Shown here piece by piece: positions 13,508 to 17,825 of a stretch of DNA of 64,000 nt. Both the position numbers and the translations under genes were made by a program. This DNA comes from an uncultured Bacillota bacterium (GTDB taxonomy: Bacteria; Bacillota; Dethiobacteria; DTU022; UBA8154). Under the pieces are notes generated by a model that ran no database searches, was not told the DNA's origin, and saw nothing but the letters and a program-made list of their open reading frames with translations. The first letter of the stretch is position 1. Each line of letters begins with the position of its first letter. Location of the stretch: contig CALJJZ010000002.1 in the NCBI GenBank assembly GCA_937973635.1, positions 7,550-71,549 of the forward strand, read 5' to 3'.

Positions 13508-15115
13508 TTACAGCGGCTTCAGGGTATACCAGTGCAGGTATACGGGGCCTGTTTCCGCATAATGGACCTTCCAGGCCGGAACAGCGATTAACCCTGCCCC
13601 CGGGCCGTTTCTAAGCAGCCGGTAAACGGGCTCCACGGCCAGGAGCGTAGCCTCTTCCCCGGCAAAGAGAGGGCGGTGCAGGGCAATAACCTGAAAGAGA
13701 GCATGGGTATAGGGGGCAAAAGGCAGGAACACTCCCCTGGCCTCTCCGGCGTAAAGATAAAAATTACGGCGGTAATAAGGCATACCTTTGTCATTAACCA
13801 GCATTTCGCAGCTGCTATCCGTCCGCAGCAGGGGCAGCCCATAAAAATAGCTGCGCCAGAAAAACCTGTAGCCGGCGCTGGTTTTCTCCCGTCTTTCCAG
13901 GAAGGTGCCGGCAGGCCAGCCGCCGTAGAGGCACTGGTTTTCCGCCGCCTGCAAGAGCGCGGAAGCGTAAGAGAGGCGGTTCGGGAAGACCTCCAGGCCC
14001 GGCGCCGTATATTCCAGGGCACCACCGGCATAAAGGCGCAGCCCTTTTTTCCCATCGGTATAATAGATGGCGCCGTCCCGTTCTTCAATACGTCTGGCCA
14101 TGGCCGGATCAAGGAAGAAAGCATGCACCAGGTCTTTGCGGGGCAGGGTCTCCTGAACGAGGGAGATCTCCCTCGCTTCCAGCTTCCCGGGGATATAGAG
14201 CGGCTGCGGCACCGTGATCTGCCATTGCTCCAACACGGGTGCTTCCGTTCCGGAACTCGGTTCCTCTGCGCCATTAAGCTCCAAAGGGGGGTCGCCTGCC
14301 CAGCCAGGTTCCCGGCTTTCCTCTTCGGCCCCGGGCTCCGCTGCCGCGGCGGCTTCCTCCCCACCCGGCGTCTCCTCTTCCCCTTCCTCCCCGCTTCCCT
14401 CCGTGGTCCCCTCCCCTGCGTCGGCTGCGGCCTCCTCTGCCTCCTGTGGCGCCTCCTCTGCCGTCAGGTGCAGAGAGACGGCTGTCTCGCCGCTGCCGTC
14501 AGGGAAAGAGACGATCTGCAGGACAAACTGCTCCGGCAATTTCTCCGCCCTAAGGTTCTGTTGATCCAAAAAGGGGGCAAGGGCTCCTTCCAAAAAATTT
14601 TCTTCCTCGGCCTGTAAACGATATAAGACTTTGTCTTCTCCCACCAGCAGGACATAATGCTCCTCTGCTCCCTTAAGGAGATAAACAGACGAAAGCTCCC
14701 CGGGGAAAGCCCTGCGCCCCCATAAAAAGCTCTCGGGCAGAGGAGGGTTAAAAACAAACTGCAGCGTAAATAATGCCGTTTCCGTTATCTTTGCCAGTTC
14801 CGTTTCTCCTAGCCGCTCCCCCAGCGCCACCGGCAGCTCCCGGCTCAAAAAACGGAAAGAGTCTTTCCAGACGGCCTCCAGCTCCCTTGTCCCCCGGCGA
14901 AAATAATAAATTTCCTGCGCACCCGCCCGCTCCAGGATTGCTTTTGCCGGCGGCAGCAGCAGTTCCGGGGGAGGAAGGGGCGTAAAATAGGCGTATTCAA
15001 AGCGGGGCAGCATCCCTTCTTCCAGGTAGGGGCTGCCAAACCAGATCAGATAGGTAAGGTAGATGCTAAGACCGATCAACCCTACAAGGAGGATCGTTTT
15101 AAAGCGCTCGATCAT
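13508..15115 (-). CDS. yycH: WalRK regulatory protein YycH (WalH) with a long acidic insertion
   Basis: MIERFKTILLVGLIGLSIYLTYLIW N-terminal TM; lies between walK and yycI; start moved to ATG 15115. Confidence 0.75.
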   Translation of the reverse strand: MIERFKTILLVGLIGLSIYLTYLIWFGSPYLEEGMLPRFEYAYFTPLPPPELLLPPAKAILERAGAQEIYYFRRGTRELEAVWKDSFRFLSRELPVALGERLGETELAKITETALFTLQFVFNPPLPESFLWGRRAFPGELSSVYLLKGAEEHYVLLVGEDKVLYRLQAEEENFLEGALAPFLDQQNLRAEKLPEQFVLQIVSFPDGSGETAVSLHLTAEEAPQEAEEAAADAGEGTTEGSGEEGEEETPGGEEAAAAAEPGAEEESREPGWAGDPPLELNGAEEPSSGTEAPVLEQWQITVPQPLYIPGKLEAREISLVQETLPRKDLVHAFFLDPAMARRIEERDGAIYYTDGKKGLRLYAGGALEYTAPGLEVFPNRLSYASALLQAAENQCLYGGWPAGTFLERREKTSAGYRFFWRSYFYGLPLLRTDSSCEMLVNDKGMPYYRRNFYLYAGEARGVFLPFAPYTHALFQVIALHRPLFAGEEATLLAVEPVYRLLRNGPGAGLIAVPAWKVHYAETGPVYLHWYTLKPL

Positions 15116-16949
15116 GCTTCTCTGCCCCCTCTTTTGCAGCTCGGCACTCTCCGTTTTTCTCCCCCGCCGTCTGTTGGAGCAAATAAACGGTGGCCTCCGT
15201 CCCCTCGCCGGGGCTGCTGCGCAGGACAATCTTCCCGCCGTGCCGCTCCACGATCTGCCGGGCAATGGCCAGCCCGAGGCCCGTCCCCCCCGAATCGCGG
15301 GAACGGGCCTTGTCCACGCGGTAAAACCGTTCAAAGACGCGCTCAAGTTCGTCCGAGGGGATCCCGATCCCCGTATCTTTAACGGTAATAAAGATAAACC
15401 CTTCTCCCTCCGAACCCGCCTTTACCGTCACTTCACCCCCGGCCGCCGTATATTTCAGGGCGTTGTCCAAGAGGATCAGCAGCAACTGGACGATCATATT
15501 CCGCTCCAGAGAAGCAAATAATTTCCGCGGGGAAAGGACCTTGCGCAGGCGCAGGCCGCGGGCCGCTCCCTCCGGCGCCACCTGTTCCAGCACTTCATCG
15601 AGCAAAGCATTTATCTCTGTCTCTTCCCTGACCAGGTGCTGGTCCGGGGAGTCAAGGCGCGAGAGGACAAGGAGGTCTTTCACCATTCTCACCATCCGGT
15701 CCGCTTCCTTATCCAGCACTTCAAGGAAGCGGGCCCTTACAGCGGGCCTTTCCTGGGCCCCGTTAAGCAGGGTCTCCAGGTAATTTTTAATCGTCGTCAG
15801 GGGCGTACGCAGCTCGTGTGAAACGTTGGCCACAAATTCCTGCTGCATACGTACATATTTCCTTTCCCTGGTGACGTCATGCAAAACCACAAGCGTCCCC
15901 TTTTGTTCTTCGTTGCCCTCGTAAGGGACGAAATAAACCTGCAGCGTCTGTTCCCGGGGAAAAGAAAGGTGGATCTCCCGGATTGCCGGAGTGGTGCAGA
16001 AAAGGAGCTGACGCAAAGCAAAAGGGGGAAAAAAACCGCCCAGAATAACCTCCCCGGGCAGCCCCAGCTCGCAGGGGCTGCCGCTCTGCTGCAGGAACTC
16101 CCGCGCCGCCGGATTCAGGTGGATGGCTTCCCCCCGGCTGTTAAAAGCAAGGATCCCGTCGTTCATATAATTTAAAATAGCTTCGACCTTATTTTTTTCC
16201 GCCGATATTTCCTGCAGCGTTGCCTGCAGGCGGGCAGCCAGGTAATTAAACATCTTCCCCAGCTCGCCGATCTCGTCCTCGGCGCGCACGGTAATCTGCT
16301 GGGAGAAATCCCCGCCGGCCAGCGCCGCCGCCCGGCGCGTTACTTCCCGGATGGGCCCGGTAATGGTCCGGGTCAGAAGAAACCCTATCACCATGGCTGT
16401 AGCCAGAACAACCAGCCAGCCGCTGAGGAGCATAATCTTGATCTCCCTTAAGGTGACATAGATATGCTCAAAGGAGCTGCGCAAAAAAACAACCCCTACG
16501 ACGACGGGCCCTTCTTTGACGGGCAAAGCCAGGTAATGATAGCGGCCGCCCGTCTGGGGATCCGCCCGTACCGTCTCCACGCGGTTCCCCGTCAAAGCCA
16601 GCAGGATGTCGTCCTGAATCACCCGCCCCCCCAGCAGGGTGGCGGAAAGCTGCCCCGAACCGCCCAGGAGGCGGCCGTGCCGGTCCAGGACGATAATCTC
16701 CGTGCCGGGGCTGCCTTCCCAAAAATCTGCCACCAGCCCCGTAATCTGTTCCGGTTGCTGCTCTTCGTCCAGCAGATAGCGGCGCAGAAAGCTGCCCAGC
16801 AGCTCGGCCTGGGAGTTCTGGCTGGCGGTAAAATTACGCAAATAATAATTTTCCAGCGATTTTACCAGGTAAACCCCGCCCAGCTGCATGGCAAAAAGGA
16901 TGAGCAAGGAGTAAACGATCACGATCTTCCCCTGCATCCCCATGCGCAT
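15099..16949 (-). CDS. walK: Sensor histidine kinase WalK (YycG)
   Basis: Two TMs, HAMP, PAS, FVANVSHELRTPLT H-box, and DTGIGI/FYRVDKARSR/GTGLGL ATPase motifs. Confidence 0.9.
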   Translation of the reverse strand: MRMGMQGKIVIVYSLLILFAMQLGGVYLVKSLENYYLRNFTASQNSQAELLGSFLRRYLLDEEQQPEQITGLVADFWEGSPGTEIIVLDRHGRLLGGSGQLSATLLGGRVIQDDILLALTGNRVETVRADPQTGGRYHYLALPVKEGPVVVGVVFLRSSFEHIYVTLREIKIMLLSGWLVVLATAMVIGFLLTRTITGPIREVTRRAAALAGGDFSQQITVRAEDEIGELGKMFNYLAARLQATLQEISAEKNKVEAILNYMNDGILAFNSRGEAIHLNPAAREFLQQSGSPCELGLPGEVILGGFFPPFALRQLLFCTTPAIREIHLSFPREQTLQVYFVPYEGNEEQKGTLVVLHDVTRERKYVRMQQEFVANVSHELRTPLTTIKNYLETLLNGAQERPAVRARFLEVLDKEADRMVRMVKDLLVLSRLDSPDQHLVREETEINALLDEVLEQVAPEGAARGLRLRKVLSPRKLFASLERNMIVQLLLILLDNALKYTAAGGEVTVKAGSEGEGFIFITVKDTGIGIPSDELERVFERFYRVDKARSRDSGGTGLGLAIARQIVERHGGKIVLRSSPGEGTEATVYLLQQTAGEKNGECRAAKEGAEKHDRAL

Positions 16950-16951
16950 TT

Positions 16952-17638
16952 TTAAGAAGGCCTCCTCAGATAATACCCCGCCCCCCGCCTGGTGCAGAGG
17001 TAGCGGGGGTTGCCGGGATCGTCCTCAATTTTTTCCCGCAGGCGCCGTACTGTTACGTCTACCGTACGCTCATCCCCAAAATAATCATAGCCCCAGACTT
17101 CCTGTAAAAGCTTTTCCCGGCTAAAGACATATCCGGCATGGCTCATGAGAAAAGCCAGCATTTTAAACTCCCGGTAGGTAAGCTCGATGACCCGTTCGCC
17201 CTTTTTACACTCCATCCTGGCGGAGTCAAGGGAGAGCTCGCCGCAGGAGAGCACAGCCGTATCTTTCTCCTGCATTTTTACCCGCCGTAAAGCCGCCCTG
17301 ACCCGGGCCAGCAGCTCGCGCATACTGAAAGGCTTGGTGACGTAATCATCGGCCCCGAGCTCCAGGCCGAGGACCTTGTCCACCTCTGTTTCCTTGGCCG
17401 TGAGCATAATGATGGGGACATCCATTTTCTCCCTGATTTTCCGGCAAAGGGTGAAGCCGTCGATGTACGGCAGCATGATATCGAGGAGGATGAGGTCCGG
17501 CTGCTCGCTAAAGGCAAGGCGCAGGGCTTCCTCCCCTTCATAGGCAAGAAGGACATGAAAACCCTCCTCTTCCAGGTTATACTGCAGTATTTCGGCGATT
17601 GGTTTTTCGTCGTCCACGACCAGGATTTTGGGCGCCAA
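16952..17638 (-). CDS. walR: Response regulator WalR (YycF)
   Basis: ILVVDDEKPIA, LLDIMLP and YVTKPFS; recognition helix RTVDVTVRRLREKIE matches B. subtilis WalR as I recall it; TTG start. Confidence 0.92.
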   Translation of the reverse strand: MAPKILVVDDEKPIAEILQYNLEEEGFHVLLAYEGEEALRLAFSEQPDLILLDIMLPYIDGFTLCRKIREKMDVPIIMLTAKETEVDKVLGLELGADDYVTKPFSMRELLARVRAALRRVKMQEKDTAVLSCGELSLDSARMECKKGERVIELTYREFKMLAFLMSHAGYVFSREKLLQEVWGYDYFGDERTVDVTVRRLREKIEDDPGNPRYLCTRRGAGYYLRRPS

Positions 17639-17786
17639 CCCTTTACCCCCCTTACCTTTTATATTCTTTTTGCCGGAGGAGATCTCCTGCCTCCTTCTTA
17701 CAGACAAAAAAAAGTGACCCAAAGGCCACTGTAAATAAAATATATTTTAAGAGGGGGTCAACTTGCTTTTACTTTAACAGGCAATT

Positions 17787-17825
17787 GTTACAGTATTATT
17801 ACAGAAATTTTATATTTTCATTACA
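17787..17825 (-). promoter_or_regulatory. Phased WalR-box array upstream of walR
   Basis: Minus strand TGTAAT-GAAAA-TATAAA-ATTTC-TGTAAT-AATAC-TGTAAC; the last pair is a perfect TGTWAH-N5-TGTWAH. Confidence 0.7.

Follow-up and report, generated by a model that had tools for sequence, protein, structure and literature searches.

We propose that the stretch of 64,000 nucleotides from an uncultured Dethiobacteria bacterium analysed here (contig CALJJZ010000002.1; the window, meaning the whole stretch) carries, as the immediate upstream neighbour of walR, a stand-alone small RNA (sRNA) gene of about 58 nt that is activated by a response regulator, likely WalR itself. We assign a probability of roughly 0.6 to this reading as a whole, in which the element is a self-contained sRNA gene distributed across the class. 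The original prediction, made from the letters of the window, had noticed four WalR half-sites in 11-bp phase on the minus strand upstream of walR and had taken them as possible autoregulation of walRK. The half-sites are exactly as it gave them, and the promoter that they precede appears to be that of the RNA gene. In the mechanism that we envisage, the repeats, in 11-bp phase, would be occupied by two dimers of a response regulator of the OmpR family, most likely WalR in its phosphorylated form (WalR~P), and their proximal pair, ending exactly 10 bp before the -10, would stand in for the -35 element. Transcription would begin just before AGUUGACCCCCUCUU and halt at a strong intrinsic terminator ahead of walR, and the unpaired C-rich 5' segment of the RNA would presumably pair in trans with the G-rich ribosome-binding sites of target mRNAs. 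The walRK genes would be transcribed separately, from a sigma-H-like promoter between the terminator and walR.

The half-site array occupies positions 17787..17825 of the minus strand, about -61 to -23 from the predicted start of the RNA. It consists of TGTAAT (17825-17820), a degenerate TATAAA (17814-17809), TGTAAT (17803-17798) and TGTAAC (17792-17787), with the spacers gaaaa, atttc and aatac in minus-strand reading; one half-site of the distal pair is therefore the degenerate one. The proximal pair, TGTAATAATACTGTAAC (17803-17787), is the sole exact match in the window to TGTWAH-N5-TGTWAH, for which 0.09 matches would be expected and for which at least one was found in 9 of 100 shuffles, while the whole 2.56-Mb genome (52% G+C) holds 13. 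By match count alone the array would be only suggestive; conservation makes it solid, far beyond chance. It is kept in about 100 related promoters, and in a set of 100 non-identical ones the two proximal half-sites are essentially invariant, the distal TGTAAy half-site shows T94 G89 T92 A82 A94 in its columns, and the second site recurs as a degenerate aAnAAy that matches the window copy. The boxes can thus be regarded as an array of WalR consensus for an OmpR-family regulator, under selection, with binding predicted. A property of the motif itself bears on such scans: TGTAACA, present at 17787-17793 and in many related promoters, is nearly self-complementary (reverse complement TGTTACA), so that where a promoter contains two TGTAAC half-sites its other strand matches TGTWAH-N5-TGTWAH as well, and sites can be counted twice or given the wrong orientation.

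The spacing between the boxes and the core promoter is rigid. The last half-site lies exactly 10 nt from the -10 in 100/100 promoters, and the -10 columns, read at this fixed offset from the boxes, are T95 A100 T74 A89 A78 T100. In the window, the alignment and the column consensus place an extended -10 at 17771..17779 of the minus strand, with TG at 17779-17778, a T, and the hexamer TAAAGT at 17776-17771; this TGn extension is present in only 16 of the 100 promoters. The best match to TTGACA at a spacing of 16-18 nt reaches at most 2/6 in 94 of them. The expectation of the original prediction that the box promoter would be devoid of a proper -35 is borne out, for the conserved -10 at 17776-17771; the -10 that it had selected, TAAAAT at 17749-17744, has to be given up, being located downstream of TAAAGT, inside the conserved transcribed 5' segment, and its hexamer is not conserved in other copies (TTTTTATATAT). 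Two other assignments were considered and discarded. TTGACC at 17761-17756 has no -10 at 16-18 nt and belongs to the invariant 5' end of the RNA, which excludes it as a -35, and an extracytoplasmic-function (ECF) type promoter following the TGTAAC-N17-CGAC pattern of B. subtilis SigX finds no CGAC or CGTC at the needed spacing. We consider the promoter to be probably of the sigma-A type without a -35, with the boxes as its activator site.

The sequence that follows has the features of a short, terminated RNA. Conservation sets in sharply 7-9 nt past the -10, and the predicted start is the conserved purine or A at 17764-17762, just before AGUUGACCCCCUCUU / AGUUGACC. Conservation, minimum free energy (MFE) folds and a covariance model, R1, converge on a predicted sRNA of about 58 nt, 5'-(A)AGUUGACCCCCUCUUAAAAUAUAUUUUAUUUACAGUGGCCUUUGGGUCACUUUUUUUU-3' (17706..17764, minus strand). 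Its 5' part is an invariant, C-rich, single-stranded segment, AGTTGACCCCCTCTT (17749..17763, minus strand), which resembles an anti-Shine-Dalgarno sequence, is presumed to be the base-pairing seed and is followed by A/T-rich sequence. Its 3' part is an intrinsic terminator (17706..17730, minus strand) with a 7-bp stem, AGTGGCC/GGTCACT, and a TTTG loop at 17730-17713, then 8 T at 17713-17706. The same organisation was obtained in nearly all full-length copies among the 99 folded by MFE: about 30 unpaired 5' nucleotides, then a hairpin of 7-12 bp, then a run of U's. RNAalifold, run on 91 sequences, returned 9 pairs, all of them (9/9) with compensatory double changes; at one hairpin pair, for example, 45 sequences have A-U and 43 have G-C. 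The R1 model, which was quickly calibrated and whose E-values are consequently rough, scores the window copy at E=3.3e-12. No meaningful match to Rfam 15, which includes csRNA and RsaE, was obtained at E<=10 for this region of the window, nor any at E<=0.1 for five homologous loci. Coding alternatives were rejected: the small open reading frame (ORF) TTG ACC CCC TCT TAA within the conserved segment has a stop that is not conserved elsewhere and no preceding Shine-Dalgarno sequence, and a mini-ORF on the plus strand behind the Shine-Dalgarno-like AAGAGGGGGT comprises 4 codons, with a flank that is not conserved.

The invariance of the 5' segment can be judged from copies that were collected without reference to it. 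For 30 related genomes, the sequence upstream of the best walR match, chosen by protein similarity and not by a DNA motif, was aligned; about 20 genomes from three families presented the same order: boxes, 10 variable nucleotides, TAnnnT, often with TGn before it, 7-9 nt, AGTTGACCCCCTCTT, hairpin and T-run. The box consensus in this alignment is TGTAAy-N5-aAnAAy-N5-TGTAAT-N5-TGTAAy; the hairpin varies in sequence and retains its pairing, and AGTTGACCCCCTCTT is identical in 20/20 of these walR-upstream regions. An exact-pattern scan for AGTTGACCCCCTCTT-N0-5-TATA, with one genome per species, returned at least 119 loci. Invariance among these is given by construction, the exact 15-mer having selected them, and the unbiased evidence is that of the protein-anchored alignment and of the covariance-model matches. 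Nearly all of the loci listed come from Dethiobacteria metagenome-assembled genomes, many of them labelled 'Syntrophomonadaceae' or 'Bacillota', and boxes are located upstream in 109/119.

The distribution of the RNA gene is that of an independent unit. R1 matches were found in 139/149 Dethiobacteria genomes and in 59/60 genera, with 1-5 copies each; several genomes carry at least two copies on different contigs (five in G003, four in G011), and the genome of the window has one. According to crude ORF calls, which define the genomic context throughout, walR is downstream at only 23-25 of the 119 loci listed, with a gene for a LysM-G5-M23 peptidase as the usual upstream neighbour, and a birA-like gene is downstream at 37, near a divergent sigma-54 activator, glutamate dehydrogenase or valS. 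Some of the listed loci (cluster 5 and others) are convergent with the 3' end of a neighbour on the opposite strand. Beyond the class, a sample of 251 genomes of the phylum gave full-length R1 matches in families f48, f58, f84, f106, f29 and f26, and other families of the phylum retain the seed core GACCCCCTCTT or UGACCCCCUCUU. The promoter of the f48 and f84 copies reads TGTTAC-N5-tTTAAc-N5-TGTAAT-N5-TGTAAC, followed after about 10 nt by a TATAAT-like -10, and the RNA gene immediately precedes that of a WalR-type regulator with the helix RTVDVTIRRLREK(I/L)E. Since the linkage of the RNA to walR exists in f48 and f84 too, it must be old, and we infer from the spread across families that walR was the original neighbour and that birA and other positions are probably later moves. 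A walR-linked copy is also carried by Dethiobacter alkaliphilus (locus L044).

Some copies depart from this scheme and are reported here in their own right. At L182 (G028:C9:56605-56668), a divergent second copy has four good boxes, TGTTAC, TGTAAC, TGTAAT and TGTAAT, but its seed is changed to AGTTAACCCCACTTTC; possibly this is a paralogous sRNA whose range of targets has shifted. Two genomes of 6.8-7.3 Mb from family f29 (L165 in G294 and L169 in G169) contain related RNAs, AUGACCCCCUUUU plus a terminator, away from walR, in which TGTAAT-N5-TGTAAT is positioned about 33 nt upstream of the -10, not 10, in a class I-like arrangement of both modules. At L007/L077 (G005:C87), the walR match has an in-frame TAA and the RNA gene is located about 830 nt upstream with an extra ORF between them, an arrangement that could reflect an insertion or an assembly or sequencing problem.

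How the boxes relate to the transcription of walRK depends on what lies between them and the gene. A putative promoter of the sigma-H type, proper to walR, is found at 17663..17688 of the minus strand, with AGGA at 17688-17685, an 18-nt spacer and GAAT at 17666-17663; the sigma-H motif is described as AGGA and GAAT with spacers of 17-18 nt (PMC12456013). In the alignment of 30 regions, a conserved block GCAGGAGtTT...aaCGAATta precedes the ribosome-binding site of walR, including where the RNA gene is not upstream, and AGGA-N17-18-GAAT was detected in 13/30 by a strict and in 23/30 by a relaxed definition, for a background of 2.7% of the genes of this genome. It is therefore likely, as judged from these motifs, that walR has its own sigma-H-like promoter between the terminator and the gene, which would make walRK independent of the box promoter. 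The same sigma-H-like motif precedes the LysM-G5-M23 gene (20087-18654, minus strand), where GCAGGATTT-N-CGAAT provides AGGA at 20201-20198, a 17-nt spacer and GAAT at 20180-20177; what this wall hydrolase gene has in common with walRK may thus be a sigma factor instead of a WalR box.

These observations bear on the autoregulation initially suggested, in which WalR would bind the boxes and activate or otherwise control walRK; the conserved segment would then be a mere 5' leader. Part of that suggestion stands: the boxes are of the OmpR type and selected, their promoter is without a -35, and a true wal operon follows. The boxes are, moreover, on the same strand, 150-190 nt upstream of walR, and their linkage with the RNA to walR recurs in families f1, f2, f4, f48 and f84. 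What does not stand is the attribution of the box promoter to walR. A covarying hairpin with 8 T separates the boxes from the gene; the identical promoter, RNA and terminator occur mostly at loci other than walR, some of them convergent with the neighbour; and AGGA-N17-18-GAAT is kept at walR with or without an RNA gene upstream. Read-through of the terminator would be the sole possible coupling of the boxes to walRK transcription. Some read-through is conceivable, as walR-linked terminators have weaker stems (mean -11.9 vs -14.7 kcal/mol), but the best T-tails are also found in walR-linked copies, and stems and tails together decide nothing on this point. The wal operons examined so far are likewise reported not to be autoregulated (PMC9210968). 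We consequently hold autoregulation through the boxes to be improbable.

The same intergenic arrangement could be read as a cis-acting leader or attenuator in which conditional termination controls the downstream walR or birA. In the two largest contexts, comprising 23 walR and 37 birA-like loci among those listed, the gene that follows is in every case 50-250 nt away and in the same orientation. However, the 5' 30 nt are unpaired in most MFE-folded copies and no conserved antiterminator pairing was found in them; a pairing of UGACCC in the seed with GGGUCA in the 3' arm of the hairpin, which is apparent in the window, is not retained in copies with a different hairpin sequence. Some copies, moreover, converge on the 3' end of the adjacent gene, the walR promoter is situated after the terminator, and walR and the birA-like genes are functionally unrelated. 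An attenuator is, in our opinion, even less plausible than autoregulation, and a stand-alone sRNA gene remains the reading that we prefer.

The identity of the regulator can be approached from its DNA-binding domain. In agreement with what had been stated initially, WalR and B. subtilis YycF (PDB 2d1v) have the same recognition helix, RTVDVTVRRLREKIE, and the best PDB matches of the C-terminal DNA-binding domain of WalR are the DNA-binding domains of VicR/YycF/WalR. Across the order the helix is near-invariant, with V/I changes and few single substitutions, which parallels the invariance of the boxes. At the proximal pair the boxes match exactly the experimentally defined WalR consensus TGTWAH-N5-TGTWAH, and at least five families show physical linkage of the RNA gene with walR. 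Motif, helix, synteny and the exclusion of PhoP-like regulators and of the closest paralogue together make WalR the probable binder of the boxes.

The competing proposal is that another OmpR-family regulator, either PhoP/PhoB-like or the closest paralogue of WalR (C2:75898-76584), binds the boxes and that the RNA belongs to its regulon. As PhoB and CiaR illustrate, repeats in direct orientation 10 bp ahead of the -10 are a general feature of the family, CTGTAAT-N4-CTGTAAC is similar to the pho box of E. coli, the genome encodes at least six further OmpR-type regulators, two of which sit in pst clusters, and no classical WalR target here presents the same box. The Pho boxes of this genome are, however, TTAAC(A) repeats read towards a confirmed pstS, different in both sequence and orientation, and PhoP was rejected as the binder on this ground; the two PhoP-like regulators are encoded at C71:13237 and C40:19879. 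The paralogues carry RTVDVHIR[HY] or more divergent helices. The WalR helix and the boxes are both near-invariant. For the closest paralogue (54% identity), a search of five f48/f84 genomes gave no evident orthologue, its best match there being the RNA-adjacent WalR itself; not being co-conserved with the boxes and the RNA in f48 and f84, C2:75898 was also discarded. Binding by a regulator other than WalR is thus unlikely, although less so than the two cis-acting explanations discussed above.

Concerning the Pho boxes themselves, a region outside the window (C71:11230-11430) contains 5-6 TTAAC(A/C/T) repeats in 11-bp phase that end about 9 nt before a TATAAT, upstream of the confirmed pstS and read towards it, which is the textbook form of a Pho-box array in Gram-positive bacteria; C40 carries another pst cluster, which has a regulator of its own. 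We take such TTAAC(A) repeats before pstS to be Pho boxes of the B. subtilis type. Two paralogous promoters, also outside the window (C40:17248-17275 and C40:27401-27417), share TGTTAA-N5-TGTTAA(-N5-TGTTAA), which reads TTAACA on the strand of the genes, ahead of TTTCAG-N17-TATAAT. The two promoters precede genes for a bactofilin-like membrane protein and a phytoene-desaturase-like FAD oxidoreductase, near a PhoP-like two-component system.

With regard to function, GACCCCCUCUU in the seed is complementary to Shine-Dalgarno regions of the AAGAGGGGGUC type, for which the genome offers candidate sites. A genome-wide search for longer complements of the seed gave a handful of sites that overlap a Shine-Dalgarno sequence (e.g. 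C15:53847, C29:26065 and C64:293), with no functional theme. A feedback of the RNA on the ribosome-binding site of walR was also considered: this duplex ranks 24th of 2466 in the genome of the window (-20.9 kcal/mol), but its median percentile over 30 walR orthologues is just 0.26, and walR was set aside as it is not a conserved target. Both the expression of the RNA and its action by base pairing are predictions.

Several considerations weigh against the proposal of a WalR-activated sRNA. Firstly, genome-wide duplex scoring brought out no conserved target. Secondly, among the 13 genome-wide consensus matches there is no convincing TGTAAY-N5-TGTAAY before classical WalR targets such as wall hydrolases, and a WalR regulon with the TGTAAY motif is thus uncorroborated in this genome by a second site at wall genes. 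Thirdly, in family f5 the WalR helix has a T->M change and the same boxes are kept; the helix and the boxes give no signal of co-variation, which is in itself uninformative. Finally, by position alone WalR could repress the box promoter instead of activating it, given that the WalR sites of S. aureus are associated with activation where they lie upstream of the -35, and with repression where they lie between or downstream of the -35 and -10 (PMC10746227). Activation is nevertheless favoured, because the absence of a -35, the absence in most copies of TGn and a near-perfect -10 at a rigid distance of 10 nt correspond to a geometry of the CiaR type; from this analysis we would consider activation about twice as probable as repression.

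The genes around the element are all on the minus strand and include a genuine walR-walK-yycH-yycI operon in its usual purA neighbourhood. The walR gene (16952..17651) encodes 228 aa, with a Shine-Dalgarno sequence GGGGGG at 17651-17646 and a TTG start at 17638-17636, and its product scores 330 bits against NCBIfam YycF (cut-off 340), the best among the regulators of the genome. It is followed by walK (16949-15099; 616 aa), which scores 501 bits against NCBIfam WalK and contains the Pfam domains Cache_WalK, HAMP, HisKA and HATPase_c, by a yycH-like gene ending at 13508, with a weak Pfam YycH score of 22.5 bits (27-bit cut-off), and by a yycI-like gene (13471-12593) with a YycI score of 45.5 bits. 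The yycH-like ORF as listed (612 aa, 13508-15346) has some 250 nt in common with the 3' end of walK, and its true start is therefore probably near 15100. Directly after the yycI-like gene comes murA (12586-11276), at the position held in Bacillus by walJ and htrC. Upstream of the array are a gene for an FMN-reductase fold, the LysM-G5-M23 peptidase gene and purA.

It can be hypothesised, with about an even chance of being right, that WalRK possesses a post-transcriptional arm consisting of an ancient WalR-activated sRNA with the invariant anti-Shine-Dalgarno seed GACCCCCUCUU, ancestrally beside walR and a counterpart of the CiaR csRNAs. The proposed WalR-linked sRNA would be present in nearly all Dethiobacteria and in several other lineages of Bacillota, whereas no such RNA has been reported for the model Firmicutes. 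Among two-component systems, only WalRK is essential across Firmicutes; it is a candidate drug target, and the WalR regulon has hitherto been described almost wholly as protein-coding genes of wall metabolism, with an operon that is not autoregulated. If the hypothesis is true, part of the WalR output would, in some lineages, pass through RNA-RNA regulation; such a picture is supported by the class-wide sRNA, by WalR-type boxes in the position of an activator site and by a 15-nt seed that is invariant over dozens of genera, in an RNA family absent from Rfam. It also calls for caution when autoregulation is deduced from motifs, as a site upstream of a regulator gene may serve an unannotated RNA gene between the two. 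Because Dethiobacter alkaliphilus is a described species with a walR-linked copy, the case is directly testable.

The promoter architecture proposed here has precedents. In E. coli PhoB promoters, 11-bp direct repeats end 10 bp upstream of the -10 and replace the -35, with class II activation through sigma region 4. The 11-bp periodicity, the 10 bp to the -10 and the substituted -35 are common to the pho-box promoters and to the box promoter, whereas the regulator, the signal and the products differ, and the Pho boxes of the present genome are TTAAC repeats. The RNA can be compared with RoxS/RsaE, which is controlled by the OmpR-family ResD/SrrA, and with FsrA, trans-acting sRNAs of Bacillales in which C-rich unpaired motifs pair with G-rich ribosome-binding sites. 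The predicted RNA differs from these in being much shorter, in having a single seed at its 5' end and other promoter boxes, and in giving no Rfam match. With the WalR regulon sites of B. subtilis and S. aureus, the array shares the consensus at the proximal pair, the orientation of the repeats, an identical recognition helix and the adjacent walRK-yycHI operon. The known targets of WalR are, by contrast, mainly cell-wall hydrolase and envelope genes, and the activating sites of S. aureus are upstream of the -35 (PMC10746227), whereas the site described here replaces it. In the WalR literature searched, we found no WalR-activated sRNA.

The closest counterpart is provided by the csRNAs of streptococci (Halfmann et al. 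2007; Marx et al. 2010). Their CiaR-dependent promoters consist of TTTAAG-N5-TTTAAG, ten nucleotides and TATAAT, are activated by CiaR and yield sRNAs (PMC3091779). The two systems have in common a direct repeat of hexamers for an OmpR-family regulator, separated by 5 nt, which stands in for the -35 at a distance of exactly 10 nt from the -10; short non-coding RNAs, that of the present system being predicted, with intrinsic terminators and an unpaired stretch complementary to the Shine-Dalgarno sequence; several copies per genome at varying loci; and a recognition helix and a repeat that are conserved across the group. They differ in the half-site, which is here TGTAAY, the WalR consensus, and not TTTAAG, and in the number of phased sites, four instead of two. 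The RNA is also shorter here (about 58 nt); it has only one hairpin, at the 3' end, carries its seed at the 5' terminus and shows no sequence or Rfam relationship to the csRNAs. Its hosts are Dethiobacteria and some other Bacillota, and its gene is often the immediate upstream neighbour of the regulator gene. The element would therefore belong to a known kind, the response-regulator-dependent sRNAs with anti-Shine-Dalgarno seeds, within which the WalR-type boxes and the linkage to walR would be new.

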